Shown here: positions 13,522 to 60,572 of the stretch, in pieces
How positions within the stretch are numbered: position 1 is the first letter of the stretch
Layout: every line of letters starts with the position of its first letter
Source of the DNA: an uncultured Myxococcales bacterium
Lineage (GTDB): Bacteria > Myxococcota_A > UBA9042
Reading direction: 5' to 3'
DNA: 64,000 nt
Assembly: GCA_903919145.1 (NCBI GenBank)
Contig: CAIXGW010000139.1
Span: forward strand, 33,927 to 97,926
The notes under the pieces: generated by a model
Told to the model about the DNA's origin: nothing
Database searches by the model: none
What the model saw: the letters and a program-made list of their open reading frames with translations, nothing else
Program-made: the position numbers and the translations under genes

Positions 13522-13665
13522 TCAAGGGGCTGGGCAAGCTAGCACCCAAGACCGTGAATTCGATCCGGGTTACACCCGGTTCTTGTTCACGGGTCTTGGC
13601 TACTACTACTGGGTCTTCTTCCGTACCCCAAACCACGTCCGTTCCGGAACCCGGAACGAATTTGG
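13522..13665 (+). repeat. Copy A of a ~150 nt conserved intergenic element (second copy inverted at ~58420-58585); contains perfect palindrome GTTCCGGAAC followed by CCGGAACG
   Basis: By-eye alignment to the reverse complement of 58420-58585 gives about 80% identity over ~135 nt (shared blocks CCCAAGACCGT, GTTACACCCGGTT, TGTTCAC, CTTCCGTACCCCAA, CCGTTCCGGAACC). Sits exactly between the cytochrome stop (13521) and the next gene. Neither translation frame is conserved between the copies (one frame hits a stop in copy B), so it is non-coding. Confidence 0.6.
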
Positions 13666-14414
13666 GGGTTGGGGTACTAGTCAGGGCGCTGTTTGTCTTG
13701 TGGGTCATCGTCGCCGCCACCCAGCCAGGGCTCGCCTTGGCCTCTCAGGACCCGGTCGACCCGCACAGCCGGCCACCGCTGTCGACCGCAACGCCAGAAG
13801 AGCCGGCCGCGCCCAAGGATTTTCTCTACGACGGCAACCATGTTGGCCTGATGCTTGGGCCGGTGTTCAGCGGCCTGGACCGGGCCCTGCCGGGGCTGGA
13901 TCGCAACGGCACGGGGCTGCGCCTGGGCGGGCGGATCTCCGCCATTACCCAGTTCATTGACGGCGGCGTCGACCTGCAGCACGTCGAGCACGGCGGCAGT
14001 GCGGCGAGCCTGAGCCGCACCGAGCTTGGCGTACGGGTTGGCAGCCATCCGGCATTTCCCTTTGTGGTCTTCAACAGTTGGATTAACGATGTCATCAGCG
14101 GCGTCCACCTGTACGTCGGTGCGTCGGTGGGGCGGCTGGCGCTGCAGGGGCAACAGGCGGTGGCGGCGGTGGGGCTGGACGGGACCAGCGCCGTGCAGTG
14201 GCGCCCCAGCGCGCTGGTGGGCGTCGGCGCTGACTTGCCGGTGTCGCCGCGCCATCGCCCCAATGGCTGGTGGTTGACCCTGCGCTATGAGCTGCGCTGG
14301 ACTGGCTTTGGCAGCACCGCGCCGCGCCACAACCTGGACGACAGCATGGTGGGGGTACTGCTGGGCTACCGCAGCTACAACAACAGCTGGGCCCGCTGGT
14401 CTCGGCCCTTCTGA
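13662..14414 (+). CDS. Hypothetical secreted protein, possibly outer-membrane beta-barrel
   Basis: TTG at 13662 gives signal peptide (M)GVGVLVRALFVLWVIVAATQPGLALA|SQDP. Alternating hydrophobic beta-strand-like pattern and Gly-rich turns (e.g. VGSHPAFPFVVFNSW, WWLTLRYELRWTGFG). An ATG at 13518 overlapping the upstream stop exists but would make element A coding, so it is disfavoured. Confidence 0.45.
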   Translation: MGVGVLVRALFVLWVIVAATQPGLALASQDPVDPHSRPPLSTATPEEPAAPKDFLYDGNHVGLMLGPVFSGLDRALPGLDRNGTGLRLGGRISAITQFIDGGVDLQHVEHGGSAASLSRTELGVRVGSHPAFPFVVFNSWINDVISGVHLYVGASVGRLALQGQQAVAAVGLDGTSAVQWRPSALVGVGADLPVSPRHRPNGWWLTLRYELRWTGFGSTAPRHNLDDSMVGVLLGYRSYNNSWARWSRPF

Positions 14415-23017: not shown

Positions 23018-23230
23018 GAGCCAAGACCGTTCCTTGGATGCGGGTCACACCTGATTCTTGTTTACCGACCTTGGTTTGGCTGTTGGGCCTTGCTTGATAG
23101 CCAAAGACCTTGGGACAGCCGGCAGCGCCGCGCCCAGACCTGCTCTCTGGCGGGCGCAGCGACCCAACCTGGCAGCCCCGGCGCCCGCCTGAGAGCCTCG
23201 CCGCCCCTGCCCAACTGCCTTGGCTTATTG

Positions 23231-37387: not shown

Positions 37388-37416
37388 TTGAAATCTGCGG
37401 GTGCAAAAGCTATTTT
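37388..37416 (+). promoter_or_regulatory. Sigma-70-like promoter candidate TTGAAA-17 nt-TATTTT upstream of the giant Cys-rich lipoprotein gene
   Basis: CTTGAAATCTGCGGGTGCAAAAGCTATTTTG. -35 matches TTGACA at 5/6, 17 nt spacer, -10 matches 4/6. Lies ~100 nt upstream of ATG 37518. Sequence-only call. Confidence 0.25.
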
Positions 37417-37517
37417 GGGCGCTGGCTGCCGCTTTCCCAGTGCAAAGAGTGCTTGGCTTTTTTGGCCTGCGCACCTGGATCGCCGGGCGAGGCGGCGATG
37501 CCCAAGGGAGCAAGGCC

Positions 37518-40500: not shown

Positions 40501-43500
40501 ACAAGTGCACAGCCGGCAGCTGCCAGCCGGGCACCGCCAAAGTCTGCGACGACGGCCAGGCTTGCACGATCGACAGCTGCAGCCCAGGCGACGGCAGCTG
40601 CGTGTTTGCACCCAAGATCGGCTGTGGCGGCAACTGCAACACCGCCAGCGACTGCAGCGATGGCAACGGCTGCACCGACGACCAGTGCGCTGCCGGCAAG
40701 TGCGCGTTTCCCAACAACACTGCCAGCTGCACGGACAACAACCCGTGCACCCTGCAAGATGCCTGCAGCGGCGGCACCTGCAAGGCCGGCAGCGCCAAGA
40801 CCTGTGACGACAGCAATCCCTGCACCAATGACAGCTGCAATGCCACCACCGGCCTGTGCAATTATGTAGGAAATACAGCAGGGTGTTCGGACAGCGACGC
40901 TTGCACCGCCCCGGACCTGTGCGCCAACAGCAATTGCACACCGGGGGCCAAGAAGACCTGCACAGACAACAACCCGTGCACCAATGATAGCTGCAATCCC
41001 GCCACCGGCGCTTGCGTCAACGCCAACAACAGCGCCGTATGCAACGACAACAACGCCTGCACGTCTGGCGACATCTGCAGCGGCGGCAGCTGCGCTGGCC
41101 CCGTGACCGTGGGCTGCGACGACGGCAAGCTGTGCACAACGGACAGCTGCGACCCGGCCGGCGGCTGCAAGACCGTCAACAACAGCTCGCCGTGCAATGA
41201 CAACAACCTCTGCACCACCGGCGACACCTGCTCGGGCGGCGGCTGCGTGGGCGGGTCCGCACCGGTGTGCAATGACAACAACGCGTGCACCACCGATAGC
41301 TGTGCTGCGGCCATTGGATGCAAGTTCGACGCCAATACCAACGCTTGCGAAGACGGCAACAAGTGCACCCTCAACGACGTCTGCAGCGCTGGAACCTGCA
41401 GCGCCGGCTCGGGCAAGACCTGCACGGACAGCGACACCTGCACGACCGACAGCTGCGATCCAGCCAGCGGATCCTGCGTCTACAAGCCCATCATCGGCTG
41501 CGGCGGCTACTGCGACAGCAGCGCCAACTGCAATGACGGCAACCTCTGCACCGACGACGCCTGCGTGGCCGGAAAGTGCACCAACACTGCCAATACCGCT
41601 AATTGCACTGACAATGACGCCTGCACCACCGGCGACAAGTGCAGCGGCGCAGCCTGCAAGCCCACCGGCACGCTGACCTGCAGCGACGGCAACGTCTGCA
41701 CCAGCGACAGCTGTGTCAAGGCCACTGGTTGCAGCTTTGTCAACAATAGTGCCAGCTGCACAGACAACAATGCCTGTACTACCGGCGACTTGTGCTCGGG
41801 CGGTGCCTGCCTGGGCGGCGCCCCGCCCAGCTGCGAGGACAACAACGGCTGCACGACGGACAGCTGCGACAAGGGCAAGGGCTGCCAGAACCTGGCCAAC
41901 AACGCGCCCTGCGACGATGGCGACGCCTGCACCGCCAATGAGCAATGCGCCAAAGGCAATTGCGTGGCCACCACCGACGTGCTGTGCACTGACAACAACG
42001 CGTGCACCAACGACTCCTGCGACAAAGCCCAGGGCTGCGTGTTCACCAACGTCAGCAACGGCGCCGGCTGCGACGACGGCAAGCCCTGCTCGCTGGGCGA
42101 CAGCTGCCTGGCGGGGCAGTGCAAGGCTGGAGTGGCGGTGTGGGTAGACAGGCTGGCCGGCTCTGTTCCAGCCCCCAACAGCGGCGCTGGCGGCGGCAGC
42201 TATGCGGAGGGCACCGGCGAAAAGGCGGCCTTCAACACCCCCATGGGCATCGCGTTTCACCCAGGGGTCAATGTCCTGGTCGTGGCTGATACCTATAACC
42301 ACCTGATCCGAAAGGTGACGTTGCAGGGAAAGGTCAGCGATATCGCGGGTGTAGCCGGCAAGGGCAGCTATGCCGATGGCCAGGGCAGCAATGCGGCGTT
42401 CAACCTGCCAATGGGCGTCGCCGTGAGACCAGATGGGCAGATCCTGGTCGCTGACACGGGCAACCACCTGATCCGCGCAGTGATGATCGATGGCACCGTT
42501 ACCACTGTAGCTGGTACAGGCAGCGGCGGCAGTCAGGATGGCAGCGTCAAGTCGGCCACCTTCGTAGGGCCGCGCGGCGTGGCGGTCAGCGTGGGAGGTG
42601 TTGCTGCCATCGCGGACACGGGCAATCACATGATTCGCCTGATAAAGCTTAGTGAGGGGCTGGTGGTGACGCTGGCCGGATCTCCCTCAGCTGGGTTCAA
42701 AGACGGCATGGGCAGCGCCGCGCAGTTCAACACTCCCGTTGGCGTGGCCTTTGACACAGCGGGTCGCCTCTACGTGGCGGACCAAAGCAATCACCGGATT
42801 CGCCAAGTCCTGCCCAGCGGACAGGTCTTGACGGTAGCCGGCGATGGCACGGCGGGCATGGCCGACAGCACCAACCCCCTGTTGGCCAAGTTCAACTTCC
42901 CGGCCGGGGTGCTTGTGGCGCCCACGGGGCTGTTTGTGGCTGACAGCTTCAATGGCCGCATCCGCCGCGGCGCAGCCAATGGCGTGGCCACGCTGGCCGG
43001 CTCAGGCACTGGGGCCGTCGATGGGCTCGCGGCCAGCGCCACCTTCTACCTGCCCCAGAGCCTTGCGGCCGATAGCGGCGGCTACCTCTACGTCGCCGAT
43101 GTCTACAACCACTTGATCCGGCGGGTGCGCGACTCCAGTGGGGGGTGCACCATCAATGGCCAGTGCGTCGTGGGCGGCTGGTGGAAGCCGGGAGCCAGCT
43201 GCTACCGCTGCGAGGCAGCCTCCTCTGCCACCGCCTGGACGGGCAAGCCCAACGGCGCGCCGTGTGATGACGGGCTGCTCTGCACCGCTGAAGACCTCTG
43301 CAACTACAAGTCGGGGCCGGTGGCGTGCAACGGCACGGTGGTCACCTGCAACGACGGCAATGCGTGCACCAACGACTCTTGCAGTGCGGCCACCGGGGCG
43401 TGCCAGAACCTGGCCGGCAGCGGCGCCTGCGACGACGGCAGCCCCTGCACCTATCCCGACACGTGCAGCGGCGGCAGCTGCGGGGCCGGCACCCAAAATG

Positions 43501-44876
43501 GCTGCGCCGACGGCAATCCCTGCACCGAAGACCTGTGCAACAAGACCGCCAACACCTGCGAAAACCCGCCGGTCAGCTACGGAATCTCTTGCACGGCGAT
43601 GGGCAAAGAAGGGTCGGCCTTCTGCGCTGGGACCAAGTGCACCTCGCTGGAGCAGAGCGCCAACATCGTCATTACCGGAGGGGCTACGCTGTCGCGCCTG
43701 ACCTCGGTGGACCGCGGCCCTGACAAAGAGCTTTACGTCAGCGGCTTTGGCGCCAATCCCCTGATGGCCGGGGGCCTTTCGGCGATCTACAAAGTCGCCA
43801 CTGCCAGCTCGCCGCCGTCTGTGGCGCTGAGCTACTCTGGCAGCCATGAGATCTGGACGGTGGTGCGGCGCTTGGCCAGCGGCGGATTTGGCACCGTGGG
43901 CGGCACTGCGGATAGCGCGGCCTTGCTGTGGGGGCTGAGCAACGGCACCTGGGCGCCCACCGCCGGCCCGGGGAGCCTGGGCAGCCGGTCCTTGCGCGAA
44001 GCCAGCGTCTACCTGGCCTCGGACGGCAGCGAGAACTATCTGTTTGGCGGAGCCACCGACACCGGCGGCAACCCGACCTCGCTGTACCGGGCGCGGTGGA
44101 CCGGCTCGGGTTGGTCCACGGCCAGCGGCAGCGGCGAAATGGCGCTGTTCAACTCTGCGCCAGCCAACGCAGGCGAGTGTGCCACCAAGCGGATCGGCGC
44201 TCCCATCGCCGGGCTGGCCACCTACTCGGCCACGGAGGGCTACGTCGCCAGCAACTGGGGCTCAGCGGCGCCCCTGGCCCAGGTGGCGCTGTGGGACGCC
44301 AACAGCACGGTGAGCACGACTTGTGCGACCTATGCCCCAGGCGGCTCTGTGTTCTATGGCACGGGCGCCAACTACCTGGGAGTGCAGGGCACGGCCACTG
44401 CGGTCGCGGCGACCAGCGCGTCGCGGGCGCTGTTGGTCGGCACCCAGGGGACTGCGCCGTTCATCTACCGGCGCACGGCCAACGGCTGGACGGCCGAGTC
44501 ACCGGCGCCGCTGCCGCCGTCTGGCTTGCCTGCCTGGAACGCTGGCAACTATGCGCCCAGCAGCGTCTGGCTGGGGGCCAGCGATGCCTGGGTGGTGGGG
44601 ACCCTCAAGTTCAGCGGCTGTGCCTATGTGTTTGCCCTGCACGCCTCGATGGGCGCCACCACCGCAGTGTGGGACAAGCTGTTGGTGACCACCAACACCG
44701 TCGTGGGCTGCTCCGCCTCGGCCAGCAGCCACGTCAGCGCCACCAAGGTGTGGGGCGACCCGACCGATGGCGCGATCTACATCACCGGCTCAGCGCCCAC
44801 CGACAGTACCGGCAAGACCTGGGTCAATTCCGGTGGGTCGATGGGCCAGGTCGGCATCCTGTGGCGAATCAAGTAG
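37518..44876 (+). CDS. Giant (~2450 aa) secreted lipoprotein built from several dozen ~40 aa Cys-rich repeats (Myxococcus-type cysteine-rich repeat), a six-blade NHL-repeat beta-propeller and a ~450 aa C-terminal domain
   Basis: ATG 37518 (AAGGGAG upstream) or 37566. Signal/lipobox WAWLALSLALCAAIAGGC|EG. Repeat unit, e.g. CSDGNPCTTDACPASGTCEHTAIADGGTCDDGNACTAGEFCAAGKCGGGTVKHCDDNNVCTADAC, iterated ~35 times. NHL motifs NHLIRKV / NHLIRAV / NHMIRLI / NHRIRQV / NGRIRRG / NHLIRRV. More Cys repeats after the propeller. Confidence 0.8.
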   Translation: MSVARRQEGPLAEGHRMGATRAGPVQRRPWAWLALSLALCAAIAGGCEGKFLTAEQIDQRLDAAGTAADGADVAGLEGDADSQADTLAAADSDGAGSSDSAGETASGCVSAADCSDGNPCTTDACPASGTCEHTAIADGGTCDDGNACTAGEFCAAGKCGGGTVKHCDDNNVCTADACLPAKGCTHTDDDGATCDDADPCTVGDKCLAGQCQAQPKDCGNDACTTAKCVNGVCKSASKVDGLDCDDKDGCTSGDKCQDGLCVGAQKTLCDDKNPCSIDSCVGTLGCQFALVDGPCSDGDACTLGDTCAGGTCAAGATKACDDGNPCTQDLCQPVDGSCAVTPTAGPCSDGNACTTGDGCAAGACSAGKLAGCDDNNPCTVDSCDANSGSCTALFNTAGCEDGDACTVGDSCSGGECKAGAVKPCADSDTCTSDACDAKTGACQHSKINGCGEFCASVADCKAGNVCNQVACLSGKCAFLPTTAICDDGDACTLADQCGAGACQPGSPKNCDDGKPCTTDSCQAGTCNHANNSDPCSDNNACTQGDLCKGGACGSGKAKACDDGNPCTSDSCDVSSGDCQATANSEACDDKNPCTSTDSCQLGQCAAGTPVNCDDGNLCTHDSCDGKTGTCVHANNSAPCSDGNACSEGDVCAQGSCASGAAKVCQDGNACTNDACDPLSAACLYTPNAAPCSDGDACTIGDSCAASGCKAGAAKVCADSDTCTNDTCDSASGNCVYKPITGCGGNCTKPSDCGDANPCTDDSCVSGKCAFPANTAACSDGNACTVSDLCSGGTCKAGATKACSDGNPCTADACDNKSGDCGHTPNVAGCDDGNACTAGDVCGGGACKAGKATDCSDGNPCTDDACDPTSGNCKSSSNTATCTDGNACTSGDVCAGGTCKPGAAKGCDDGNPCTNDACDPLSGVCSKVANSAQCSDANDCTQGDLCSAGVCKPGAAKACDDKNVCTQDSCDAASGACVAAPNAAPCDDGSKCTQADKCTAGSCQPGTAKVCDDGQACTIDSCSPGDGSCVFAPKIGCGGNCNTASDCSDGNGCTDDQCAAGKCAFPNNTASCTDNNPCTLQDACSGGTCKAGSAKTCDDSNPCTNDSCNATTGLCNYVGNTAGCSDSDACTAPDLCANSNCTPGAKKTCTDNNPCTNDSCNPATGACVNANNSAVCNDNNACTSGDICSGGSCAGPVTVGCDDGKLCTTDSCDPAGGCKTVNNSSPCNDNNLCTTGDTCSGGGCVGGSAPVCNDNNACTTDSCAAAIGCKFDANTNACEDGNKCTLNDVCSAGTCSAGSGKTCTDSDTCTTDSCDPASGSCVYKPIIGCGGYCDSSANCNDGNLCTDDACVAGKCTNTANTANCTDNDACTTGDKCSGAACKPTGTLTCSDGNVCTSDSCVKATGCSFVNNSASCTDNNACTTGDLCSGGACLGGAPPSCEDNNGCTTDSCDKGKGCQNLANNAPCDDGDACTANEQCAKGNCVATTDVLCTDNNACTNDSCDKAQGCVFTNVSNGAGCDDGKPCSLGDSCLAGQCKAGVAVWVDRLAGSVPAPNSGAGGGSYAEGTGEKAAFNTPMGIAFHPGVNVLVVADTYNHLIRKVTLQGKVSDIAGVAGKGSYADGQGSNAAFNLPMGVAVRPDGQILVADTGNHLIRAVMIDGTVTTVAGTGSGGSQDGSVKSATFVGPRGVAVSVGGVAAIADTGNHMIRLIKLSEGLVVTLAGSPSAGFKDGMGSAAQFNTPVGVAFDTAGRLYVADQSNHRIRQVLPSGQVLTVAGDGTAGMADSTNPLLAKFNFPAGVLVAPTGLFVADSFNGRIRRGAANGVATLAGSGTGAVDGLAASATFYLPQSLAADSGGYLYVADVYNHLIRRVRDSSGGCTINGQCVVGGWWKPGASCYRCEAASSATAWTGKPNGAPCDDGLLCTAEDLCNYKSGPVACNGTVVTCNDGNACTNDSCSAATGACQNLAGSGACDDGSPCTYPDTCSGGSCGAGTQNGCADGNPCTEDLCNKTANTCENPPVSYGISCTAMGKEGSAFCAGTKCTSLEQSANIVITGGATLSRLTSVDRGPDKELYVSGFGANPLMAGGLSAIYKVATASSPPSVALSYSGSHEIWTVVRRLASGGFGTVGGTADSAALLWGLSNGTWAPTAGPGSLGSRSLREASVYLASDGSENYLFGGATDTGGNPTSLYRARWTGSGWSTASGSGEMALFNSAPANAGECATKRIGAPIAGLATYSATEGYVASNWGSAAPLAQVALWDANSTVSTTCATYAPGGSVFYGTGANYLGVQGTATAVAATSASRALLVGTQGTAPFIYRRTANGWTAESPAPLPPSGLPAWNAGNYAPSSVWLGASDAWVVGTLKFSGCAYVFALHASMGATTAVWDKLLVTTNTVVGCSASASSHVSATKVWGDPTDGAIYITGSAPTDSTGKTWVNSGGSMGQVGILWRIK

Positions 44877-47110: not shown

Positions 47111-50100
47111 TCAGTAGTTGTTCTTGGTCCACTTGAGGCGGTACGGACGCACGTTGTGCTTGTCCTTTGAGGTCTTGCCCTTGACCTTGACCAAAAAGTA
47201 GCCCTTGAAGTCCTGGTTGGGCACGTTGGCAAAGGCATAGCACGAGTCGGCGGCATCACCGGCATTGGCGCTAGAACAGCTGGCATAGCTGCCGTCAGCA
47301 TTGGTGATTTCCAGGTCATAGTTGATGCCGGTGGGCAAGCCAGAGATGGTCACCGTGTAGCCGGTCCAGTAGCCAAAGATCGGCAAGCGGTAGTAGTCGA
47401 CGTCGCCCTGGCGGTCGATAAACGCCTGGATGTCGCCCTGGGGCCCGGCCAGAATCGGCGCCTTGGCAGGGTCGCCATTGGGTTCGTAGGAGTCGTACTG
47501 GCCGTTGAATTGCATGGGGTTAAGGTACATTCGGTCGCCCCACCAGTCGATTCGTTCGGGGCTCCAGCTGTTCTCGCCAAGTTCATAGCAAGCCATGTAC
47601 TGCCCGTCGCCAAACATCACCTCCATGCGGCCATCGTGGTCCATGTCGGCCACCGTAGAGCTCTGGACGCCGCCGCCCTTGGTGGGCACCGGCCAGCCGG
47701 GCACTGACTTGCCGTTGGCGCCCACGATGTTGTTGCCCGCCAGCTGCTCCATGACGCCATCGCCGTTGAGGTCGGCAAACACCGAGCCGTAGTCGGCGCC
47801 CCAGCTCCACTTGCCGCTGTGGGTCAGGTCCATGGGCAGGCCGCTCAAGTTGCCGCTGGCCAGCACGTTGCCGGTGGCGTCGAGCAGGTAGCCGCCGTTG
47901 GGCGGGAACACCAGCTCGGTCTTGCCGTTGCCGCTGTAGTCGAGCACCGCGGCGCTAGAGGTCCACCAGTACTTTTGGCCAGTGGCCCAGCACTTGTCTG
48001 GATTGGCCGGATCAAGGGGGCAGAAGCGCTTGAAGCTGTCAGAAGCTTTGTCATAGCGCCACGCGTAGATGCGCCCGTCTGGGTGGTCGCCTTCGGATCC
48101 GGAGCCGTAGCCCGAGCCAGCCATCACTTCCAGCACGCCGTCGCCGTCCAGGTCGACCATCACCGGCGAGTAGATTTCCCAGGCGCCCGCGGCGTCGGTG
48201 ACCAAGGTGTGGACCTTGCCCGGGCCCCACTTGCCGTTGCCATCCCAGGTGCCGGCGTTGAGCACGTAGCCAGACCAGATCGAGGTGGCCACGTCAGGCA
48301 CGCCGTCGCCGGTGACGTCTCCTACCGCGGCGCTGCCGTAGCTGCCGCTGATGTCAGCCCTCTTGCCGTTGCGGTCGTAGACGCCGTTCAGGCAGACCAC
48401 GTCCCAGTCAAAATCGGGGCGCGCATCCAGCTGGGCTACCGTGGGCCGCCACCATGAGCTGCTGCAGCCGGGCAGGTCGATCTTCTTTTCGCCCAAGGCG
48501 TTCAGGACCTGGGCGCGGCAGCCCACAATCAGGTCGCCAGTGCCGTCATTGTCAAGATCGACGGGAGCCACCGGGCACTGCACGTCGCCGGGGCCCATAA
48601 AGACTGGCCACTTGCCGGCACACGGCGTGGGGCAGGTCTGGTCCTTGCTGCCATTGCAGTCGTTGTCTTTGCCGTCGCACAAGTCCAAGGCACCTGGGTA
48701 GATGGTGACGTCGGAGTCGTCGCAGTCCCAGTCGGGCGAGCCGTCGCTCTTGACGTCCTTGGCCGTGGCCCAACCGACCGGCACATTGCACTTCTCCTGC
48801 TTGGCGGCGTTGGCCGAGGCAAAGCTGTCGCCGTCATTGTCCTTGTAGATGAGCTGCACCGAAAGGCCATCGTCGATCAGGCTGTTGCAGTCATCGTCCA
48901 GGTCGTTGCAGACTTCCTTGGCGCCGGGGGACATGTTCTTGTTGAAGTCGTTGCAGTCTCCGGACTCGGCGGTGTAGCCCTTGGGGGCCGTGCAGGCGAG
49001 CTGCGACGTGACCGAGCCGTAGCCGTCGCCGTCGTTGTCTTTGTAGAAAGCGATCAAGGTGTTTTCGTCAGCCTGGCTGTTGCAGTTGTCATCGACGCCG
49101 TTGCAGGTCTCTGCCTTGCCCGGATAGACCGCGGCCTCGTTGTCATTGCAGTCGCCGGTCTTGTTGGCTGTCCACTCGCCTGTGGCTTTGCAGTAGCACA
49201 CGGCGGTGACGTTGGCGCCAAACTGGTCTTTGTCTTTGTCTGGATAGAAGTTGCTGCAGCCGGTGGCGCCAATCGGGTCGGTCTGGCCGTCGCAGTTGTC
49301 GTCTGCGCCGTTGCACACTTCGGCGGCGCCTGGCTTGGCGTTGGCGCTGCCGTCGTTGCAGTCGCCGCCCACAAAGGCGGTGTAGGGGTACTTGGCGGCC
49401 CCAAGGCACTGCTTGTCGCCGTCGATGCCGTAGCCGTCCTGGTCGCCGTCTTTGAAGTAGTCGCTGCAGCCCTGGCAGCCCGACTCGTCGGTCTGGCCGT
49501 TGCAGTTGTTGTCCTTGGTGTCCAAGCACTTTTCGGTCTGGGCGGGGTACACGGCCGGGTCGGTGTCCAGGCAGTCGCCGCCCTGCTTGGCGGTGTAATT
49601 GCCGGCCGGCGAGCAGGAGCACTTGGCGGCGCCGATGCCCGCGCCATCGCCATCGACATCGCTGTAGAATTGAATGCATCCTTTGGCATTTTCGTCATTT
49701 TCGCTGCCGTTGCAGTTGTCGTCCTTGCCGTTGCCGCAGGTCTCTGGCTGGGCTGGGTGCACCGCGCCGTCCAGGTCGTTGCAGTCGCCCGCCTGGCTGG
49801 CCACAAAGGTGCCGGTCTTGGCGCAGAGGCACTTCTCGCTGCCCGAACCCCAGCTGTCGCCGTCGCCATCGGCAAACAACTTGATGCAACCGCTGGCATT
49901 TTCTTCATCGGTGGCGCCATTGCAGTTGTCGTCTGCCTGGTTGCAGGCCTCGGCGGCGCTGGGGTACACCTTGGCGTTGCCGTCGTCGCAGTCGCCGCCT
50001 TTTTGGGCCTTGTACTTGCCGCTAGACATGGTCAGGCACTTCTTGTCGCCGTCGATGCCAAAGCCGTCGCCGTCGCCGTCCAGGAACAACACCGTGCAGC

Positions 50101-52621
50101 CCAGGCAGTTTTCTTCGTCGGTCTGGCCATTGCAGTCGTTGTCTTTGGTGTCGCTGCATTTTTCGGCCTGGTTGGGCGCAATGGCCGGGTCCTTGTCATT
50201 GCAGTCGCCGGCGGTCTTGGCGCTGACTTCGCTGGTCGCAGTGCACAGGCAGCTGCCGGCGCCGTCGCCCACGCCATCGCCATCGCCGTCGGCATAGAAC
50301 TTGTTGCAGCCCTGGGCATCCACGTCGTTCTCGCTGCCGTTGCAGTTGTCGTCTTTGCCGTTGCCGCACAATTCCTTGGCCTTGGGGTGGATGGCCGCGT
50401 CGGCGTCATTGCAGTCGCCGCCGCCGCTGGCGCTGTAGGGGGCGGTGGCGCCGCACAGGCACTTGACCAGGGTCACGCCAAAGCCGTCGGCGTCTTCGTC
50501 GAAGTAGAAGGCCTTGCAGCCCTCCGCGTCGGCTTCGTCAATGCCGCTGTCGCAGTCGTCGTCTACGCCGTTGCACACCTCCTTGGCGAGCTTGCTGATG
50601 GCCTTGTTGGCGGGCTGGCAGTCGCTGGCGTTGGGGTCGCCGTCGCCGTCCTTGTCGGGGTCGCAGGCGTCGCCCAGGCCGTCTTCGTCCAGGTCTTTTT
50701 GGTCGGTGTTGGCCACGGCCGGGCAGTTGTCCACCGCTGTCACCTGCGGGCACCCCGCGGCATTGTTGACCACCATGTCGGCGTCGCTGTCGCAGTCGCA
50801 GGCGTCGCCCTGCAGGTCAGTGTCGGCGTCGGCCTGGGCCGGATTGGCAGCCCACGGACAGTTGTCCACGCTGTTGGCCACGCCGTCGGAGTCCCAGTCG
50901 TTCTCGCAGACATCGCCGATCTTGTTGGCATTGACGTCGGCCTGGTCGGCGTTGGACTTGCCGGGGCAGTTGTCGGCGCCGTTGGCCACGCCGTCGCCGT
51001 CCATGTCGGCGTCGCAGGGGTCGCCAGCCAGGTCTTCGTCCAGGTCGGTCTGGCTTGGGTTGGCGGCCAGCGGGCAATTGTCTTTGAGGTCGGCGATGCT
51101 GTCATTGTCGTCATCGTCGTCGCAGGCGTCGCCCTGGCCATCTTTGTCTTGGTTGGCTTGGTCGGTGTTGGGGGCCATGGGGCAATTGTCCAGTCCATTG
51201 GCCACGGTGTCCGAGTCCTGGTCGCCGTCGCACGCGTCGCCAGCGCCATCGCCATCGCCATCCAACTGGTCGGAGTTGGCGGCCAAGGGGCAGTTGTCCT
51301 GGGTCACATCCCCCGGGCAGGCCACGGCGGGGCTGATAGTTCCGGAATTGGCTGGCAGAGGATTGGCGATGCCGTCGCCGTCGCCGTCGCAGTCGCAGGC
51401 GTTGCCCAGGCCGTCGCCGTCGCCGTCTGCCTGGGTGGCGTTGGCCGCCAGCGGGCAATTGTCTTCATTGTCAAAGATCTTGTCATTGTCGTCATCGGGG
51501 TCGCAGGCATCGCCCTGGCCGTCTCCGTCGGTGTCGGTCTGGTCGGCGTTGAGGGTGACCGGGCAATTGTCGGCGGCGTCGCTGGCTCCATCGCCGTCGT
51601 CATCGGCATCCACGCAGTCGGCCTGCGGATCGCCATCGCTGTTGACAAACCCTTCATCTGTCTGCCCAGAGCAGTTGTCGTCAATGTCATTGCACACTTC
51701 CGCCGCGGCACCGGCACCTTGGCACAGCACCTGGCCGCCCACGCACTGGGTCTTGCCCTTGCACTCGCCATAGACGTTCTTGATGGGGCAGTCGACGGCG
51801 GCTACCTCTTCGTCGGTGCCGCCGTCGCAGTCGTCGTCCTTGAGATTGCAGGACTCTGCCTCAGGAATCTGGCCGCCACAGCTGCCCTCGGTGCCGGCGG
51901 TGCAGGTGTAGCTGCCGGCGCAGGTGCCAAAGGCGTTGCTGTTCTTGCAGGCGCCGCTCTTGCCATCGGCACAGCTGCACTGGTTGCCCGGTGGCACGCA
52001 CACGTCGCTGCCCGCCGCCTGCTTGGTGCAGGTGAAGCCGGCGCCGACGCAGCTCTTGCCCTCGCCGCAGGGCTGCACGCAGTGGCTGCCTTTGCCCAGG
52101 TCGACGCACAGGCCCTTGTTGCCCTTGCCCAGGTCGCAGTCGGCGTCTTTGGCGCAAGGCAGGCACTGAAAGGGCGCGCGGTGCAAGCACAAATTCATGA
52201 TGTCGCCGCCTGCAGTGGTCTGCAGGCACTCGTAGTCGCTGGGGCACGCGGTGATGCACGGCTGAGCGCACTCTTTGCCGGCGGGGGTCATCTGGCACAC
52301 CAGCGATGCGCAATCCTCATTGTTTTGGCAGGGGATGCTCTTGTAAGGGACATCCGCGGCCCCCAGATCGATGGCCTGGACGTCTGAACCGGCCGTGTCC
52401 TCTTCCACTTCGGGCTCGGCGCTGTCCAGGGCGTCGGCTTGCCCGTCGGCATCGGCCACTACCGCTGGCGTGCCCTCTACCTTGGTTTCGTCGCTGCAAC
52501 CCGGAGCTGCCAACCCGATGGCCGCAAGGGCCGCCAGCAAGCGAACCAGCCGGAAAAAGCTGAGGTAGGGCAGGGTGTTGGTCTTGGGGCAAGAGGCCGG
52601 GGTGGGCCGCTGAGAGGGCAT
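47111..52621 (-). CDS. Giant (~1836 aa) secreted lipoprotein with many thrombospondin type-3 (TSP3) Ca-binding repeats, MopE-like putative metal-binding CNG-DDNCNG motifs, FG-GAP/VCBS-like segments and a C-terminal beta domain
   Basis: ATG 52621. Signal/lipobox LVRLLAALAAIGLAAPGC|SDET. TSP3-type repeats DxDxDGxxDxxDNCPxxxNxxQxDxD (e.g. DADDDGDGASDAADNCPVTLNADQTDTDGDGQGDACD). Recurring CNGADDNCDGQTDP / CGNGKDDNCNGSENDVDAQGC / CDGKDNDCNGSKDQ motifs. Antisense ORFs across it are rejected. Confidence 0.8.
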   Translation of the reverse strand: MPSQRPTPASCPKTNTLPYLSFFRLVRLLAALAAIGLAAPGCSDETKVEGTPAVVADADGQADALDSAEPEVEEDTAGSDVQAIDLGAADVPYKSIPCQNNEDCASLVCQMTPAGKECAQPCITACPSDYECLQTTAGGDIMNLCLHRAPFQCLPCAKDADCDLGKGNKGLCVDLGKGSHCVQPCGEGKSCVGAGFTCTKQAAGSDVCVPPGNQCSCADGKSGACKNSNAFGTCAGSYTCTAGTEGSCGGQIPEAESCNLKDDDCDGGTDEEVAAVDCPIKNVYGECKGKTQCVGGQVLCQGAGAAAEVCNDIDDNCSGQTDEGFVNSDGDPQADCVDADDDGDGASDAADNCPVTLNADQTDTDGDGQGDACDPDDDNDKIFDNEDNCPLAANATQADGDGDGLGNACDCDGDGDGIANPLPANSGTISPAVACPGDVTQDNCPLAANSDQLDGDGDGAGDACDGDQDSDTVANGLDNCPMAPNTDQANQDKDGQGDACDDDDDNDSIADLKDNCPLAANPSQTDLDEDLAGDPCDADMDGDGVANGADNCPGKSNADQADVNANKIGDVCENDWDSDGVANSVDNCPWAANPAQADADTDLQGDACDCDSDADMVVNNAAGCPQVTAVDNCPAVANTDQKDLDEDGLGDACDPDKDGDGDPNASDCQPANKAISKLAKEVCNGVDDDCDSGIDEADAEGCKAFYFDEDADGFGVTLVKCLCGATAPYSASGGGDCNDADAAIHPKAKELCGNGKDDNCNGSENDVDAQGCNKFYADGDGDGVGDGAGSCLCTATSEVSAKTAGDCNDKDPAIAPNQAEKCSDTKDNDCNGQTDEENCLGCTVLFLDGDGDGFGIDGDKKCLTMSSGKYKAQKGGDCDDGNAKVYPSAAEACNQADDNCNGATDEENASGCIKLFADGDGDSWGSGSEKCLCAKTGTFVASQAGDCNDLDGAVHPAQPETCGNGKDDNCNGSENDENAKGCIQFYSDVDGDGAGIGAAKCSCSPAGNYTAKQGGDCLDTDPAVYPAQTEKCLDTKDNNCNGQTDESGCQGCSDYFKDGDQDGYGIDGDKQCLGAAKYPYTAFVGGDCNDGSANAKPGAAEVCNGADDNCDGQTDPIGATGCSNFYPDKDKDQFGANVTAVCYCKATGEWTANKTGDCNDNEAAVYPGKAETCNGVDDNCNSQADENTLIAFYKDNDGDGYGSVTSQLACTAPKGYTAESGDCNDFNKNMSPGAKEVCNDLDDDCNSLIDDGLSVQLIYKDNDGDSFASANAAKQEKCNVPVGWATAKDVKSDGSPDWDCDDSDVTIYPGALDLCDGKDNDCNGSKDQTCPTPCAGKWPVFMGPGDVQCPVAPVDLDNDGTGDLIVGCRAQVLNALGEKKIDLPGCSSSWWRPTVAQLDARPDFDWDVVCLNGVYDRNGKRADISGSYGSAAVGDVTGDGVPDVATSIWSGYVLNAGTWDGNGKWGPGKVHTLVTDAAGAWEIYSPVMVDLDGDGVLEVMAGSGYGSGSEGDHPDGRIYAWRYDKASDSFKRFCPLDPANPDKCWATGQKYWWTSSAAVLDYSGNGKTELVFPPNGGYLLDATGNVLASGNLSGLPMDLTHSGKWSWGADYGSVFADLNGDGVMEQLAGNNIVGANGKSVPGWPVPTKGGGVQSSTVADMDHDGRMEVMFGDGQYMACYELGENSWSPERIDWWGDRMYLNPMQFNGQYDSYEPNGDPAKAPILAGPQGDIQAFIDRQGDVDYYRLPIFGYWTGYTVTISGLPTGINYDLEITNADGSYASCSSANAGDAADSCYAFANVPNQDFKGYFLVKVKGKTSKDKHNVRPYRLKWTKNNY

Positions 52622-52788
52622 GGAAACCTGCTTGAAAAAGGGACGGCGAGCGCTACGGCAGCCAAGCAGGGCAGCATGCACAGCGGGTACCGATGGGTCA
52701 ATTCGATTCACCACCGGTCGGTCACGCCAATTGCCTCCCGGATCGCCTGACGCAGAGGGGCAGGATGCGCGACCCTGCCCAACGCTTT

Positions 52789-52798
52789 GGCAATTGCC
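52789..52798. promoter_or_regulatory. Perfect 10 bp palindrome GGCAATTGCC 69 nt upstream of zwf (plus a 9/10 copy GCCAATTGCC at 52726-52735 and a GGGCAGG-N9-CCTGCCC hairpin between them); candidate operator
   Basis: Read directly from sequence. The identical 10-mer recurs 58 nt upstream of glgP (60797-60806). See findings. Confidence 0.3.
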
Positions 52799-52866
52799 GG
52801 GGGCGGCCTGGGGTGCATTTACTCGCGCGGGTCCATGCGGTACGGTCAGATGCACAGGAGGCCCGC

Positions 52867-56601: not shown

Positions 56602-57831
56602 CTACAGCCTGACCGAAAAAGGCGAGGCGTGCGTCTGGCCCTGCCAGGCTGGCGCAGTGGCGTTGGTCACCACCCGGCCCAAGCGGGCCATGCCTTCTTC
56701 GATCGACGCCGGCTGGCAATTGGAAAAGTTCAGCCGCATGAAGTCGTAGTGCTTCTCATTGGCAAAGAAGCTGCTGCCCGGCACAAAGGCGACCTTGTCG
56801 GCAATGGCGTCGGCAAAGAGGTCTTCGGCGCGGATCTCATTGGGCAGCTGTAGCCACACAAACATGCCGCCGTCGGGGCGGGTCCAGTGGGTTCCCGCGG
56901 GCATGTGGCGGGCCAGGCTGGTGAGCATGGTGGTGCAGCGGTGGCCGTAGGTCTGGCGCAGGACCGTCAGATGACCTTCAAAATCAAAGGTCTGCAGCAG
57001 GCGATGCAGGGCCCGCTGCGACAGGCTGCTGGTGTGCAGGTCGCACGACTGCTTGGCCACCGCCATGGCGCGGATGACCTCGCGGGGGCCGTTGGCAAAA
57101 CCGATGCGCAGACCCGGCGCCAGCGTCTTGGAGAACGAGCTCAGCCGCAGCACCACGCCGTGGCCGTCCAGGGCTAGCAAGCTGGGCAGGTGTTCGCCGC
57201 GGAAGCGCAGCTCGCCGTAGGGATCGTCTTCGATAATGGCGATGCCGTGCTTGGTCGCGATCTCCAGCAGGCGAATGCGCCGCTCCAGGGTCAGCGTGGT
57301 GCCCTTGGGGTTTTGGAAACACGGAACCAGGTAGATCACCCGCACTTTCTCGCGCTCCACCAACGCCTCTAGCTGGTCCACGCACATGCCGTCGTCGTCG
57401 CTGGCCACCGAAGCAAAGCGGGCACCGTAGCCCTCAAAGGCTTGCAGCGCCGCCAGATAGCTGGGTTCTTCGACCGCCACCACCGTGCCCGGATCGATCA
57501 GGACCCGCGCCGCCAGATCGATGCCCTGCTGAGAACCACTTGTAATAAGAGTAGATTCGACATCGGTGGTGACGCCATGGCTGCGCAGCCGGTCGACCAG
57601 CCACGCGCGCAGGCCAGGCAGGCCCTCTGTGGTCGAGTACTGCAGCGCGGCTTTGCCTTCCTGGGCAAACACTTCGGCGTGAGCGGCGGCCATGGCTTCA
57701 ATCGGAAACAACTCTGGCGCCGGCAGGCCGCCGGCAAAAGACAGAATCTCTGGGTGCTCCGTGACCTTGAGAATCTCTCGGACCAAAGAGGGTTTGGCGC
57801 TCTGGGCCCGGTGCGATAGCGTCAGATTCAT
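56602..57831 (-). CDS. PLP-dependent aminotransferase (class I/II; 2-aminoadipate/aromatic aminotransferase-like), translationally coupled to upstream Lrp/AsnC regulator
   Basis: ATG 57831 overlaps the Lrp stop (ATGA). ...LSFAGGLPAPELFP..., LVPCFQNPKGTTLTLERR, LRLSSFSKTLAPGLRIGF (PLP-Lys region), 409 aa. The N-terminal extension of the ORF track is rejected. Confidence 0.8.
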   Translation of the reverse strand: MNLTLSHRAQSAKPSLVREILKVTEHPEILSFAGGLPAPELFPIEAMAAAHAEVFAQEGKAALQYSTTEGLPGLRAWLVDRLRSHGVTTDVESTLITSGSQQGIDLAARVLIDPGTVVAVEEPSYLAALQAFEGYGARFASVASDDDGMCVDQLEALVEREKVRVIYLVPCFQNPKGTTLTLERRIRLLEIATKHGIAIIEDDPYGELRFRGEHLPSLLALDGHGVVLRLSSFSKTLAPGLRIGFANGPREVIRAMAVAKQSCDLHTSSLSQRALHRLLQTFDFEGHLTVLRQTYGHRCTTMLTSLARHMPAGTHWTRPDGGMFVWLQLPNEIRAEDLFADAIADKVAFVPGSSFFANEKHYDFMRLNFSNCQPASIEEGMARLGRVVTNATAPAWQGQTHASPFSVRL

Positions 57832-58304
57832 TTGGATCTCCAATGAGCGGTTTCCGGGGCAACTCGGACCAAAGTCTCCTCCTTGACGGATCGGAGCACA
57901 ATGGTGGTGTGGGTCGAGGTGACGCCGGGCAGCAGCCGCAGGGCGCCGACCAGCAATTCGTCCAGGGTGGTGGGGCTGGTGGTCTTGACCTTGAGAAGGT
58001 ATGAATCCTCGCCAGCGACCCGGTGGCACTCCAGCACTTCATCCATGGCGCCAATGGCAGTCGCAAAGTCGTCAAAGTAGCGCGGATGGTCGATGGACAC
58101 GGCCACAAAGGCGGTGATCTCTTTGCCCAGCATCACCGCGTCGACCTTGGCGGCGTAACCGCGGATCGCCCCGCGCTCCTCCAGCTTGCGGATTCTCTCG
58201 GCCACGGATGGCTGCGAAAGGCCGACCTCGCGCGCCAATTCCTGTTGGGTGGCGCGGCCTTCTTGCTGCAGTCTCTCTAGGATGTGGGTGTCAATCGCGT
58301 CCAT
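57828..58304 (-). CDS. Lrp/AsnC-family transcriptional regulator
   Basis: MDAIDTHILERLQQEGRATQQELAREVGLSQPSVAERIRKLEERGAIRGY (HTH) + RAM domain ...AFVAVSI...ECHRVAGEDSYLLKV; 158 aa. No obvious SD. Confidence 0.85.
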   Translation of the reverse strand: MDAIDTHILERLQQEGRATQQELAREVGLSQPSVAERIRKLEERGAIRGYAAKVDAVMLGKEITAFVAVSIDHPRYFDDFATAIGAMDEVLECHRVAGEDSYLLKVKTTSPTTLDELLVGALRLLPGVTSTHTTIVLRSVKEETLVRVAPETAHWRSK

Positions 58305-58419
58305 ATTGCCAATGTACTATCGTCAACAGGGCCCGTCCAGCTATAAATGATAGTGTGGTGACGACAGCGCGAGCCCTCTGCGCACTCTGGGGGTGGGCCC
58401 GCGGAGGTTGGCAAGCACC

Positions 58420-58585
58420 CCCCACGGCAAGTTCTTTTCCGGTTCCGGAACGGGGGTGGGTTGGGGTACGGAACAAGGCCCAGCAGTAGGACCCAGGACC
58501 TGTGAACATCAACCGGGTGTAACGCGGGTTGCAGGAACGGTCTTGGGTACCGGCTTGCCTTGGGGCCCCAGGATCGCCAAGCTGC
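58420..58585 (-). repeat. Copy B (inverted) of the ~150 nt conserved intergenic element (copy A at 13522-13665); lies in the divergent region between the Lrp/AsnC gene and the radical SAM/SPASM gene
   Basis: Reverse complement aligns to copy A at about 80% identity. Contains GGTTCCGGAACGG (same GTTCCGGAAC palindrome) and a possible enclosing stem GGCAAGC...GCTTGCC. Ends ~10 nt before the GAGGAA SD of the radical SAM gene. Confidence 0.6.
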
Positions 58586-58593
58586 AGGTCCTG

Positions 58594-60000
58594 AGGAACG
58601 CCATGGACGCCATCGACCACTCCCTTGCTTCTGCCGGCTGCGCGCCCTTGCCGCCACTGCTGCCCTTGGTCGATCAGAAGCGCCAGCTGGTGACGGCCGC
58701 TTTGCGCGCCCTGCTGGGGCTGCCGGACCACGTGCCGCTGCAATGGCGCGACCAGGCGGCGGCGGCGGGGCTGGAGCGCGGGCCAGAGCCGGCCTGGTTC
58801 TATCTGCTGGAGATCGGCGCTGCGCCGCAGCAGCTGCAGCTTGAGCTGGCTTCGGCCGCCGGCCCTCAAGCGGCGTACTTTCGCGGCCAGCGGCTGACCC
58901 TGGGCCATCGCGCGCTGCCGGCGGAGGCGCAGGCGATCTGGCAAGCGCTGGTGCGGCGGGCCAGGGCCGTCGACAGCGGCGCCGCGCCAGGGGCCTTGCT
59001 CGACCAGCTGCAGCAGGCGCGCCGGGCCTATGCGCCCTACCACGGTCTTGACGATCAGGAGTTCCACAGCCTGTCTGGCACGGAAGCCTTGCTGCGCCTG
59101 GGTTTTCGCTGCAACCAGGACTGCAGCTTCTGCTGGCAAGGCAGAGAATGGCCCGAGCCCGACCTGCCGATCCTGCTGACCTGGTTGGACCAGCTGGCCG
59201 GCCTGGGGGCCCAGAGCCTGGTGCTGACCGGTGGCGAGCCGACGCTCTACCTGGACAAGCTGCGCGCCGTGGCCGATCGCGCCAGGCAGGTGCATGGATT
59301 GCGCGTCTACGTGCAGAGCAATGGCATCCGCCTGCGCCAGCCAGCGGTGCTGCAGGCCCTGCAAGCTGCGGAAGTCAGCGGCGTGCTGCTTAGCTATCAC
59401 AGCGCCGACGCACAGATTTCCGACGAGATGACCCGCGCGCCCGGCACCCATCGGTTGACCGAGCAGGGCATTGCGGCAGCGCTGAGGGCTGGGCTGGAGG
59501 TCGACCTCAACGTGGTGGTAGAGCGGCGCACTTTGCCCGGCCTGGTAGAGCGCTCGCTGCGGATTCTGCAGGAGTTTGTGCCGCTGCGCCGCCAGCCCTC
59601 GCAGCTGGGGGCCACCTTCTCCTTTCCCACCGACTACCGCGATCCCGCCATCTACGCCAAAGAAGTGGCGCCGCTGGATGAAGTCGGCCCCCTGCTGGCC
59701 CGCGCTCTGCAGCTGCTCAAGGGCGCCGGGGTGCGGGTCTCGCCGCTTGGGGGCTGTGGATTTCCGCTGTGTGTCCTGGCCACGGCGCCAGAGTGCATCG
59801 AGCTGGGGTGGATGAAAAAGCTGGCCCCAGAGCACCTGCGCAGTCGACAGCACCCGCCGGTGTGCGAGAGCTGTCAGCTGCGCGCTTGGTGCCTGGGGCC
59901 GCGCCGCGATTATCTGCAACACCACGGCAGTCGTGGGCTATTGCCCTTTGCGCGCGTGCCGCCGGAAATTGGCGGGCAACTGCAGCGCGGTTCTGCGTGA
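58594..60000 (+). CDS. Radical SAM enzyme with C-terminal SPASM/twitch-like Cys cluster and an unrecognised ~185 aa N-terminal domain
   Basis: ATG 58594 preceded by CTGAGGAACGCC. Radical SAM cluster motif CNQDCSFC at ~aa 188; GGEPTLY glycine-rich SAM motif. C-terminal cysteines GGCGFPLC ... APEC ... VCESCQLRAWC. The 5' extension of the ORF track (58393-) covers repeat copy B and is rejected. Confidence 0.75.
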   Translation, partial: RNAMDAIDHSLASAGCAPLPPLLPLVDQKRQLVTAALRALLGLPDHVPLQWRDQAAAAGLERGPEPAWFYLLEIGAAPQQLQLELASAAGPQAAYFRGQRLTLGHRALPAEAQAIWQALVRRARAVDSGAAPGALLDQLQQARRAYAPYHGLDDQEFHSLSGTEALLRLGFRCNQDCSFCWQGREWPEPDLPILLTWLDQLAGLGAQSLVLTGGEPTLYLDKLRAVADRARQVHGLRVYVQSNGIRLRQPAVLQALQAAEVSGVLLSYHSADAQISDEMTRAPGTHRLTEQGIAAALRAGLEVDLNVVVERRTLPGLVERSLRILQEFVPLRRQPSQLGATFSFPTDYRDPAIYAKEVAPLDEVGPLLARALQLLKGAGVRVSPLGGCGFPLCVLATAPECIELGWMKKLAPEHLRSRQHPPVCESCQLRAWCLGPRRDYLQHHGSRGLLPFARVPPEIGGQLQRGSA

Positions 60001-60028: not shown

Positions 60029-60060
60029 GGAGCCTGTCTGAACTGTGCCCTACAGGCTCC
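60029..60060. terminator. Hairpin with perfect 9 bp stem GGAGCCTGT-(14 nt)-ACAGGCTCC between convergent radical SAM and hsp20 genes; possible bidirectional terminator (no U-tract)
   Basis: Read directly from sequence at 60029-60060; immediately followed by the 18 bp tandem repeat array. Confidence 0.3.
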
Positions 60061-60063
60061 GAG

Positions 60064-60127
60064 ATCACTGTCTTGGCTCAGGTCACTGTCTTGGCTCAGG
60101 TCACTGTCTTGGCTCTGGTCACTGGCC
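60064..60127. repeat. Tandem direct repeat, 3.5 x 18 bp (GTCACTGTCTTGGCTCAG), in the 67 nt gap between the radical SAM stop and the hsp20 stop
   Basis: ATCACTGTCTTGGCTCAG / GTCACTGTCTTGGCTCAG / GTCACTGTCTTGGCTCTG / GTCACTGGCC, read directly. Confidence 0.9.
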
Positions 60128-60131
60128 CGCC

Positions 60132-60572
60132 TCAGTTCATGGCCTTGATGGTGACCTTGCGCGGCTGAGCCTCGGCCTTCTTGGGCAGCTCGATGCGCAG
60201 CACGCCGTCTTTGACCGTGGCCATGATGTGGTCGGCCTGCACGTTGTTGGGCAGGGTGAACGACCGCGTGAAGGAGCCGTAGCTGCGCTCGATGCGGTGG
60301 TAGCTGTCTTTCTTCTCTTCTTTCTCAAGCTTGCGCTCGCCGCTGACCGTCAGCGTCTGGGCTTCGACATCGATGTGCATGTCGTCGAGCTTGACCTCGG
60401 GCAGGTCGAACTTGAGCGTGTACTTGTCGGTGTCTTCGTAGATGTCCACAGTGGGTTGAAACTGCTTGACCTGCGCGCCGCGGTAGCCTTCGGTGCGAGT
60501 GTCGAGCATCTTCTGCAGCTCGCCTTGCAGGGTGTCAATGTCAGACCAGGGGTTCCAGCGCATCAGAGTCAT
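60132..60572 (-). CDS. Small heat-shock protein, Hsp20/alpha-crystallin family
   Basis: ATG 60572 preceded by CCGGAGGATGAG. Alpha-crystallin domain ...FQPTVDIYEDTDKYTLKFDLPEVKLDDMHIDVEAQTLTVSGERK...SYGSFTRSFTLPNNVQADHIMATVKDGVLRIELPK; 146 aa. Confidence 0.9.
   Translation of the reverse strand: MTLMRWNPWSDIDTLQGELQKMLDTRTEGYRGAQVKQFQPTVDIYEDTDKYTLKFDLPEVKLDDMHIDVEAQTLTVSGERKLEKEEKKDSYHRIERSYGSFTRSFTLPNNVQADHIMATVKDGVLRIELPKKAEAQPRKVTIKAMN

Follow-up and report, generated by a model that had tools for sequence, protein, structure and literature searches.

The DNA window analyzed here is a 64-kb stretch (64,000 nt) from an uncultured Myxococcales bacterium, and this report concerns the radical S-adenosylmethionine (SAM) gene that it carries at 58603-60000, together with the repeated sequences on either side of that gene. 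We consider it probable that the gene encodes a stand-alone, uncharacterized radical SAM enzyme, in which the radical SAM core is preceded by an N-terminal domain (N-domain) and followed by a cysteine-bearing extension, that the flanking sequences are unconnected with the enzyme, and that its substrate is something other than an adjacent peptide.

Gene and domain architecture

An earlier note on this DNA had placed the gene at 58594-60000, with a product of 468 aa. The open reading frame (ORF) does stop at 60000, but the start lies further in. Position 58594 is an AGG codon, three codons upstream of ATG 58603, and it is the latter that serves as the start codon: a GAGGAA box lies 8 nt to its 5′ side, and both the box and the ATG are kept in the orthologous loci L001 and L002 (80% and 73% protein identity, respectively). 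The product is thus 465 aa in length, and a database protein of the same length, P0001, is 100% identical to it.

The only Pfam domain found in the protein is Radical_SAM (PF04055), which scores 60.4 bits (cut-off, 29.5). The motif that binds the radical SAM cluster, FRCNQDCSFCWQ, supplies C170, C174 and C177 (CX3CX2C), which are invariant in an alignment of 32 homologues, and a GGEPT motif at residues 210-214 contains the SAM-binding GGE. With a Pfam score over the gathering threshold, the GGE motif and a partial triosephosphate isomerase (TIM)-barrel fold, the protein is a member of the radical SAM superfamily, as had been proposed.

The domain in front of the core had been described as unrecognized and ~185 aa long. 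It is indeed unrecognized, since the isolated N-terminal 176 aa gave zero Pfam or NCBIfam matches even at E ≤ 10, but it is shorter than was thought: strand β-1 of the core begins at residue 161, setting the boundary of the N-domain at ~160. In the AlphaFold2 (AF2) model the domain has a predicted local distance difference test (pLDDT) score of 86-91, and its fold has no match in the PDB. The suggestion that it might resemble the recognition element (RRE) of ribosomally synthesized and post-translationally modified peptides (RiPPs), a PqqD-like winged helix of three strands followed by three helices, was not borne out, as no similarity to that element was detected. Judged by these searches, the N-domain is previously undescribed and is without precedent in sequence or structure.

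The cysteine constellation noted earlier in the C-terminal region is present. Five cysteines are conserved with the spacing Cx4C...Cx2Cx5C (C385-x4-C390 and C421-x2-C424-x5-C430); C390, C421, C424 and C430 are invariant in the 32 homologues, and the conservation of C385 is 90% or higher. The cysteine of the 'APEC' motif shows no conservation across the same alignment. To call this region a SPASM/twitch maturase architecture was an interpretation rather than an observation, and its SPASM part failed. A full SPASM motif has seven cysteines and binds two auxiliary clusters. In the window protein the seven-Cys motif CX9-15GX4C...CX2CX5CX3C...C is incomplete, with five cysteines instead of seven, an Arg or Pro at the x3-Cys position and no conserved Cys downstream of it. 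The whole protein gave no match to a SPASM profile at E ≤ 1, and the isolated C-terminal 139 aa gave zero Pfam or NCBIfam matches even at E ≤ 10, PF13186 included. As for the twitch domain, the number of cysteines fits one cluster and twitch enzymes are the closest relatives of solved structure, but profiles do not align over the C-terminal region. The conserved cysteines suggest an auxiliary Fe-S cluster, and a single such cluster could reflect either an arrangement like that of twitch domains or a SPASM domain of which only the CX2CX5C part is left. Their Cx4C...Cx2Cx5C spacing is not known from MoaA or BtrN.

Relationship to known radical SAM families

A search of NCBIfam with the window protein gave 40 matches, all of them below threshold. 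The best match is HxsC (TIGR03977), with 64.9 bits where the cut-off is 267.9 (E 5e-18), followed by MoaA, HxsC4, AhbD, TrsS, viperin, PqqE, Tes and BlsE, which match through a core of ~150 residues. The equivalog models for MoaA, PqqE, AhbD, NirJ and BlsE reach 25-51 bits versus cut-offs of 284-650, with alignments confined to residues ~166-312. All 32 relatives likewise lie far below every NCBIfam cut-off; the member scoring highest against HxsC reaches an E-value of 1.5e-24 and is still under the equivalog cut-off. Profile matches in the PDB (BlsE, the best solved relative, with E 2e-21; GDGT-MAS; SkfB; MoaA; PqqE) cover the core only. The 465-aa protein thus fits no well-characterized radical SAM subfamily, and in this respect the earlier reading stands. 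Membership in a defense system was also considered and rejected, PADLOC having yielded viperin matches at the level of the core only.

In the His-Xaa-Ser antiphage system, HxsC acts as the radical SAM maturase; its operon also encodes HxsB, which is a second radical SAM enzyme, HxsD and the HxS-repeat protein HxsA, an exported effector that is matured by HxsB and HxsC (PMC13128918). The window protein and HxsC are alike in having a radical SAM core and a second Cys cluster with a CxxC, which in HxsC is C342/C345 (PMC13128918). Among the matches, the HxsC alignment alone reaches the C-terminal region (residues 164-431 versus positions 29-286 of 292 in the profile), but the C-terminal fragment has no match when searched on its own, so this part of the alignment is not significant by itself. 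HxsC differs from the window protein in lacking the N-domain, and the window protein stays below the HxsC equivalog score. A paired, HxsB-like second radical SAM gene was not detected in the 64-kb window by BLAST with radical SAM paralogues (HxsD and HxsA were not searched directly), and no partner gene is conserved across 45 family loci.

The twitch enzymes BlsE, MoaA, BtrN and SkfB share similarity with the window protein that ends at the core (query positions 145-315). The window protein differs from them in having an extra N-terminal domain, and the window offers no context of a sugar or cofactor pathway. In contrast to the SPASM maturases of RiPPs and proteins (anSME, PqqE, CteB, SuiB), the window protein has no PF13186 or NCBIfam SPASM match, lacks the fourth Cys of CX2CX5CX3C as well as the downstream Cys, and comes with neither an RRE nor an adjoining precursor gene. 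Since tests for the scores and motifs that define them came out negative, we do not assign the protein to the HxsC, MoaA, PqqE, BlsE or SPASM families. It would work like a radical SAM enzyme of the twitch/SPASM clade.

Distribution of the family and of the N-domain

A word-indexed search found 48 relatives in the database, and the family comprises 49 loci when one genome is taken for each of 185,579 species. The strong full-length matches come almost entirely from metagenome-assembled genomes (MAGs) titled Myxococcota, delta-proteobacteria or Polyangiaceae, with a few bins obviously misnamed; the weakest matches, which cover only the core, lie outside Myxococcota. These core-only matches aside, the sequences define a small, rare and uncharacterized radical SAM family, seen only in Myxococcota MAGs.

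A profile of the N-domain was also run against 1.84 billion representatives and retrieved 107 proteins (clusters at 50% identity). The domain is essentially private to the radical SAM family, because nearly all of these are proteins of 430-490 aa with the domain at their N-terminus. The exceptions are fusion proteins: P0080 (822 aa) consists of an extra N-terminal domain, an Asp/Asn β-hydroxylase domain, the N-domain and the radical SAM domain, and P0114 (867 aa) consists of a B12-binding radical SAM domain, the N-domain and the radical SAM domain. The last of these fusions, P0082 (966 aa), has two radical SAM domains.

Some radical SAM paralogues encoded near family members (L012:11536-14040, L019:14003-15493, L035:6362-8413) carry a recurring hairpin motif, approximately 'L.L.L....A.aRT..F.l.YR'. 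In each case hhalign aligns this motif to the same part of the N-domain, though only at E ~0.01, and the N-domain hidden Markov model misses these paralogues. The motif may form the central element of a broader superfamily of domains among the radical SAM enzymes of Myxococcota.

Candidate substrates and partner genes

For 45 family loci, the surrounding ORFs were clustered in two size classes: those with 90 aa or more out to 7 kb, and those of 20-120 aa out to 2 kb. In these loci the 7-kb neighborhood holds no gene that is kept throughout the family, and synteny is found only inside sub-clades. A RODEO-style clustering of the 20-120-aa ORFs with blastp-short yielded only low-complexity noise and the synteny of close relatives; the search for small ORFs within 2 kb, which the earlier note had put forward as a check, thus revealed no conserved precursor across the 45 loci.

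Because there is neither an RRE nor a precursor gene, we consider a non-ribosomal substrate, or a protein encoded elsewhere, more likely than an adjacent RiPP precursor. We lean toward a substrate that is not a peptide for two further reasons. The nearest solved relative, BlsE, is a sugar-modifying twitch enzyme, and distant members of the family are found in a context with a glycan or lipid flavor (a weak PMT_2 match, SGNH-like proteins, radical SAM-GFO_IDH_MocA fusions and, among the genes near the enzyme in other lineages, a UDP-GlcNAc 2-epimerase). In the mechanism that we propose, the [4Fe-4S] cluster of the core would cleave SAM reductively to give a 5′-deoxyadenosyl radical, and this radical would remove a hydrogen atom from a substrate that sits where the N-domain faces the open side of the barrel. 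One auxiliary Fe-S cluster would be bound by the cysteines of the C-terminal extension, used for electron transfer or for ligation of the substrate, and the N-domain would act as a substrate-binding lid or as a recruitment module. The substrate itself would be a sugar, lipid or envelope precursor of non-ribosomal origin, or a distantly encoded protein recognized via the N-domain.

Additional radical SAM genes lie within 7 kb in ~13 of the 45 loci. One sub-branch (L005, L009-L012, L035, L039 and L056) sits in larger clusters. Besides other radical SAM genes, some of which are fusions with GFO_IDH_MocA or with a 2Fe-2S ferredoxin, these hold genes for a protein of ~670 aa that weakly matches GT-C (PMT_2), for DUF483-like and SGNH-like proteins, and for a protein of ~184 aa bearing a signal peptide and, at its C-terminus, a membrane anchor. 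In Polyangia MAGs, three stretches (L005:1-13037, L006:1-17320 and L056:1-18469) contain two to four radical SAM genes each and make up an uncharacterized multi-radical-SAM system, in which the GFO_IDH_MocA and ferredoxin fusions recur together with DUF483-like, SGNH-like and 184-aa proteins and the ~670-aa GT-C-like protein, a membrane protein. The enzymes of such clusters belong to the same family as the window protein (33-43% identity) and share its N-domain and its C-terminal Cys pattern. They differ in their surroundings: none of the partner genes, whether the 184-aa gene, the ~670-aa GT-C-like gene, the DUF483-like gene or further radical SAM genes, is found in the 64-kb window, and the window copy is therefore an orphan.

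The 184-aa protein is central to the main alternative explanation, which we regard as unlikely: that the enzyme is a protein maturase acting at a distance, and that its target, modified before export, is a small membrane-anchored member of the 184-aa family or some other distal protein. In L005 and L009-L012 the ~184-aa gene is divergent from the radical SAM gene and lies 112-256 nt upstream of it. In three more loci the protein is fused to the radical SAM enzyme or encoded directly upstream, and in L056/P0080 and L035 the 184-aa domain, the N-domain and the radical SAM domain are joined in one polypeptide. An hhalign comparison of the N-domain with the 184-aa family (probability 80%, E 1.3e-5, 88 columns) suggests that the two domains are homologous. 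The N-domain might then recruit the substrate by pairing with its homologous domain, a doubtful proposal that finds a parallel in the maturation of HxsA by HxsB and HxsC, and HxsC, the best NCBIfam match, does mature an exported protein (PMC13128918). However, no gene of the 184-aa family occurs in the 64-kb window, nor beside the enzyme gene in the closest relatives, L001, L002, L007 and L008, and only ~8 of 47 loci show the association. With 36 clusters, the 184-aa family is itself tiny; it is unannotated and has no relative in the PDB. An enzyme domain homologous to its own substrate would also be unusual. Finally, the P0080-type fusion carries an Asp/Asn β-hydroxylase-type domain as well, and the family of that domain includes lipid hydroxylases (LpxO).

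A specific form of this idea is that the N-domain is a new, non-RRE recruitment module, seemingly homologous to the ectodomain of the 184-aa protein, which would capture that protein or a distally encoded relative by pseudo-homodimerization so that it is modified by radical chemistry before export. We think this improbable; if true, it would reveal a new radical SAM-matured envelope protein system, or a new multi-radical-SAM pathway of envelope modification, in Myxococcota. The clustered members of the L005/L056 type, with their adjoining 184-aa protein, offer the better entry for experiments.

We also asked whether the enzyme could be a divergent cofactor or nucleotide-sugar enzyme of the MoaA, PqqE, NirJ/AhbD or BlsE type with a housekeeping role. 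All 32 members match the MoaA, PqqE, AhbD, NirJ2 and BlsE models at E-values of 1e-17 to 1e-27, and BlsE, MoaA and PqqE are among the PDB profile matches. Yet these matches span only the ~150-residue core and lie 4- to 10-fold under the curated cut-offs, and the N- and C-terminal domains match none of those families. No moaC, pqqA-D, nir or ahb partner is conserved nearby, and unlike housekeeping cofactor genes the family occurs in a single phylum and is rare even there. Such a role is very unlikely.

A stand-alone enzyme with a substrate encoded or made elsewhere remains our preferred reading. Some of the most demanding reactions in the biosynthesis of natural products, cofactors and the cell envelope are catalyzed by radical SAM enzymes that have auxiliary clusters, and Myxococcota are a rich source of such products. 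Uncharacterized radical SAM families are very common. This one is rare, limited to one phylum and equipped with an N-domain that lacks precedent, so that characterizing a member could uncover an unfamiliar reaction or mode of substrate recognition.

Repeats flanking the gene

An 18-bp tandem repeat starts 65 nt past the stop codon of the radical SAM gene. Its unit occurs three times in the window, versus 0.09 occurrences expected by chance, and the site is unique in the window. The repeat, a hairpin next to it and two ORFs that span it (Table 1) all exist as they were first read. The spacer between the radical SAM gene and hsp20, in which the hairpin lies, has an unremarkable folding energy (z -0.6 and -0.8), and a consensus scan of it found no intrinsic terminator; there is no T-run. 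In L001 and L002 the corresponding spacer, between the stop codons of the two genes, measures 36-45 nt and has neither hairpin nor repeat, and the 18-bp repeat is present in none of the 57 fetched loci, orthologues included. The 237-aa 'DHCLGSG' frame is an antisense shadow of hsp20 in a high-GC genome.

Other short-period tandem repeats lie within long ORFs of the window, at 19061-19240 and 34519-34941; one has ~10 copies of a 15-bp unit, the other many copies of a 12-bp unit. The source genome is evidently rich in repeats of this kind, which makes the 18-bp repeat less significant.

The earlier note had proposed that the repeat encodes a peptide substrate, so that the enzyme would be a RiPP maturase with DHCLGSGHCLGSGHCLGSGHW or the TVLAQV frame as its precursor. 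None of the three forward frames meets a stop codon within the repeat, one of them encodes a Cys/His-rich hexapeptide repeat, and the repeat is close to the radical SAM stop codon, but with the repeat missing from both orthologous loci and from every other fetched locus, with no small ORF conserved nearby in 45 loci, with no RRE and no SPASM profile, and with the longer frame being merely the antisense of hsp20, a repeat-encoded substrate was ruled out and we give the proposal next to no chance. It had been said at the outset that the idea would fall if relatives lacked the repeat or a repeat-peptide ORF, and none of them keeps either. RiPP mining at the window locus would consequently be a wasted effort, because the link to a repeat peptide is an artefact of a strain-specific, non-coding repeat.

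Upstream of the gene lies a copy of a dispersed intergenic element. The window contains three copies of it, ~55-150 nt in length and 66-77% identical, with a conserved long hairpin, CCAAGACC...GGTCTTGG around CCGGGTGTAACCCGG. The element is therefore present as described, but it is not conserved at this locus: both L001 and L002 have a clean gap of ~140 nt in its place, between the conserved control region and the conserved block before the ATG. It was not found in the 57 related loci, and Rfam gave no match to it or to anything else across the whole window. It could be a mobile element of the miniature inverted-repeat transposable element (MITE) or repetitive extragenic palindromic (REP) type, or a small RNA gene. 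These comparisons show the insertions on both flanks to be recent and lineage-specific; tandem repeat, hairpin and dispersed element alike are non-coding and unrelated to the enzyme.

Neighboring genes and control region

The neighbors of the gene are those described earlier, namely a divergent Lrp/AsnC-aminotransferase pair with an ATGA overlap and a convergent hsp20 (Table 1). Their Pfam assignments were taken from the syntenic orthologous loci. In L001 and L002 the order is aminotransferase, Lrp/AsnC, radical SAM, hsp20 and glycogen phosphorylase; Lrp/AsnC is conserved as a neighbor of the radical SAM gene only among close relatives.

The control region between the divergent genes contains an inverted repeat, ACTATC(N27)GATAGT, and a TATAAA-like box. 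Another ~60 nt before the radical SAM ATG are also conserved in L001 and L002. The control region is probably a shared operator and promoter, through which the radical SAM gene, in the lineage of the window, is probably co-regulated with the Lrp/AsnC-aminotransferase pair.

Table 1. Positions of the radical SAM gene, its domains and the surrounding features in the window
Feature	Position	Strand	Remarks
Radical SAM gene	58603..60000	+	465 aa plus stop; ORF, conserved ATG and GAGGAA box, identity to P0001, PF04055 match
N-terminal α/β domain, residues ~1-160	58603..59082	+	helix, four strands, two helices; residues 1-20 disordered
Radical SAM partial-barrel core, residues ~161-340	59083..59622	+	CX3CX2C at 59110-59133; GGEPT at residues 210-214
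C-terminal extension (~125 aa), residues ~341-465	59623..59997	+	conserved Cys at 59755-59892; putative single auxiliary Fe-S site
Class I/II aminotransferase	56602..57831	-	start overlaps Lrp stop by ATGA
Lrp/AsnC regulator	57828..58304	-	divergent from radical SAM gene; synteny and Pfam from L001, L002
Divergent control region, Lrp/AsnC-radical SAM	58305..58365		about 60-70 nt, nearly invariant across window, L001 and L002
Dispersed hairpin-forming element, copy upstream of radical SAM gene	about 58409..58559	+	insertion of ~140 nt (58420..58555)
Dispersed element, other copies	13533-13683; 23021-23074	-; -	window comparison
Hairpin, 9-bp stem	60029..60061		folding; convergent intergenic spacer
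18-bp tandem repeat	60065..60124		Tandem Repeats Finder (TRF): period 18, 3.3 copies, 97% matches, score 113
ORF from GTG, 237 aa	60045..60758	+	contains ...DHCLGSGHCLGSGHCLGSGHW...
ORF from TTG, 31 aa	60073..60168	+	MAQVTVLAQVTVLALV...LRG
hsp20	60132..60572	-	convergent with radical SAM gene; 146 aa from the ATG matching orthologues

Elsewhere in the window are two giant repeat ORFs. The first, at 37401-44876 on the forward strand (2491 aa), consists of dozens of degenerate Cys-rich repeats with units of ~150-156 nt and a C..DG..C....D.C pattern. The second, at 47111-52855 on the reverse strand (1914 aa), contains dozens of degenerate Cys-rich repeats with a 210-nt period and D-x-D-x-DG-like motifs. 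Both resemble the secreted repeat proteins that Myxococcota typically have.

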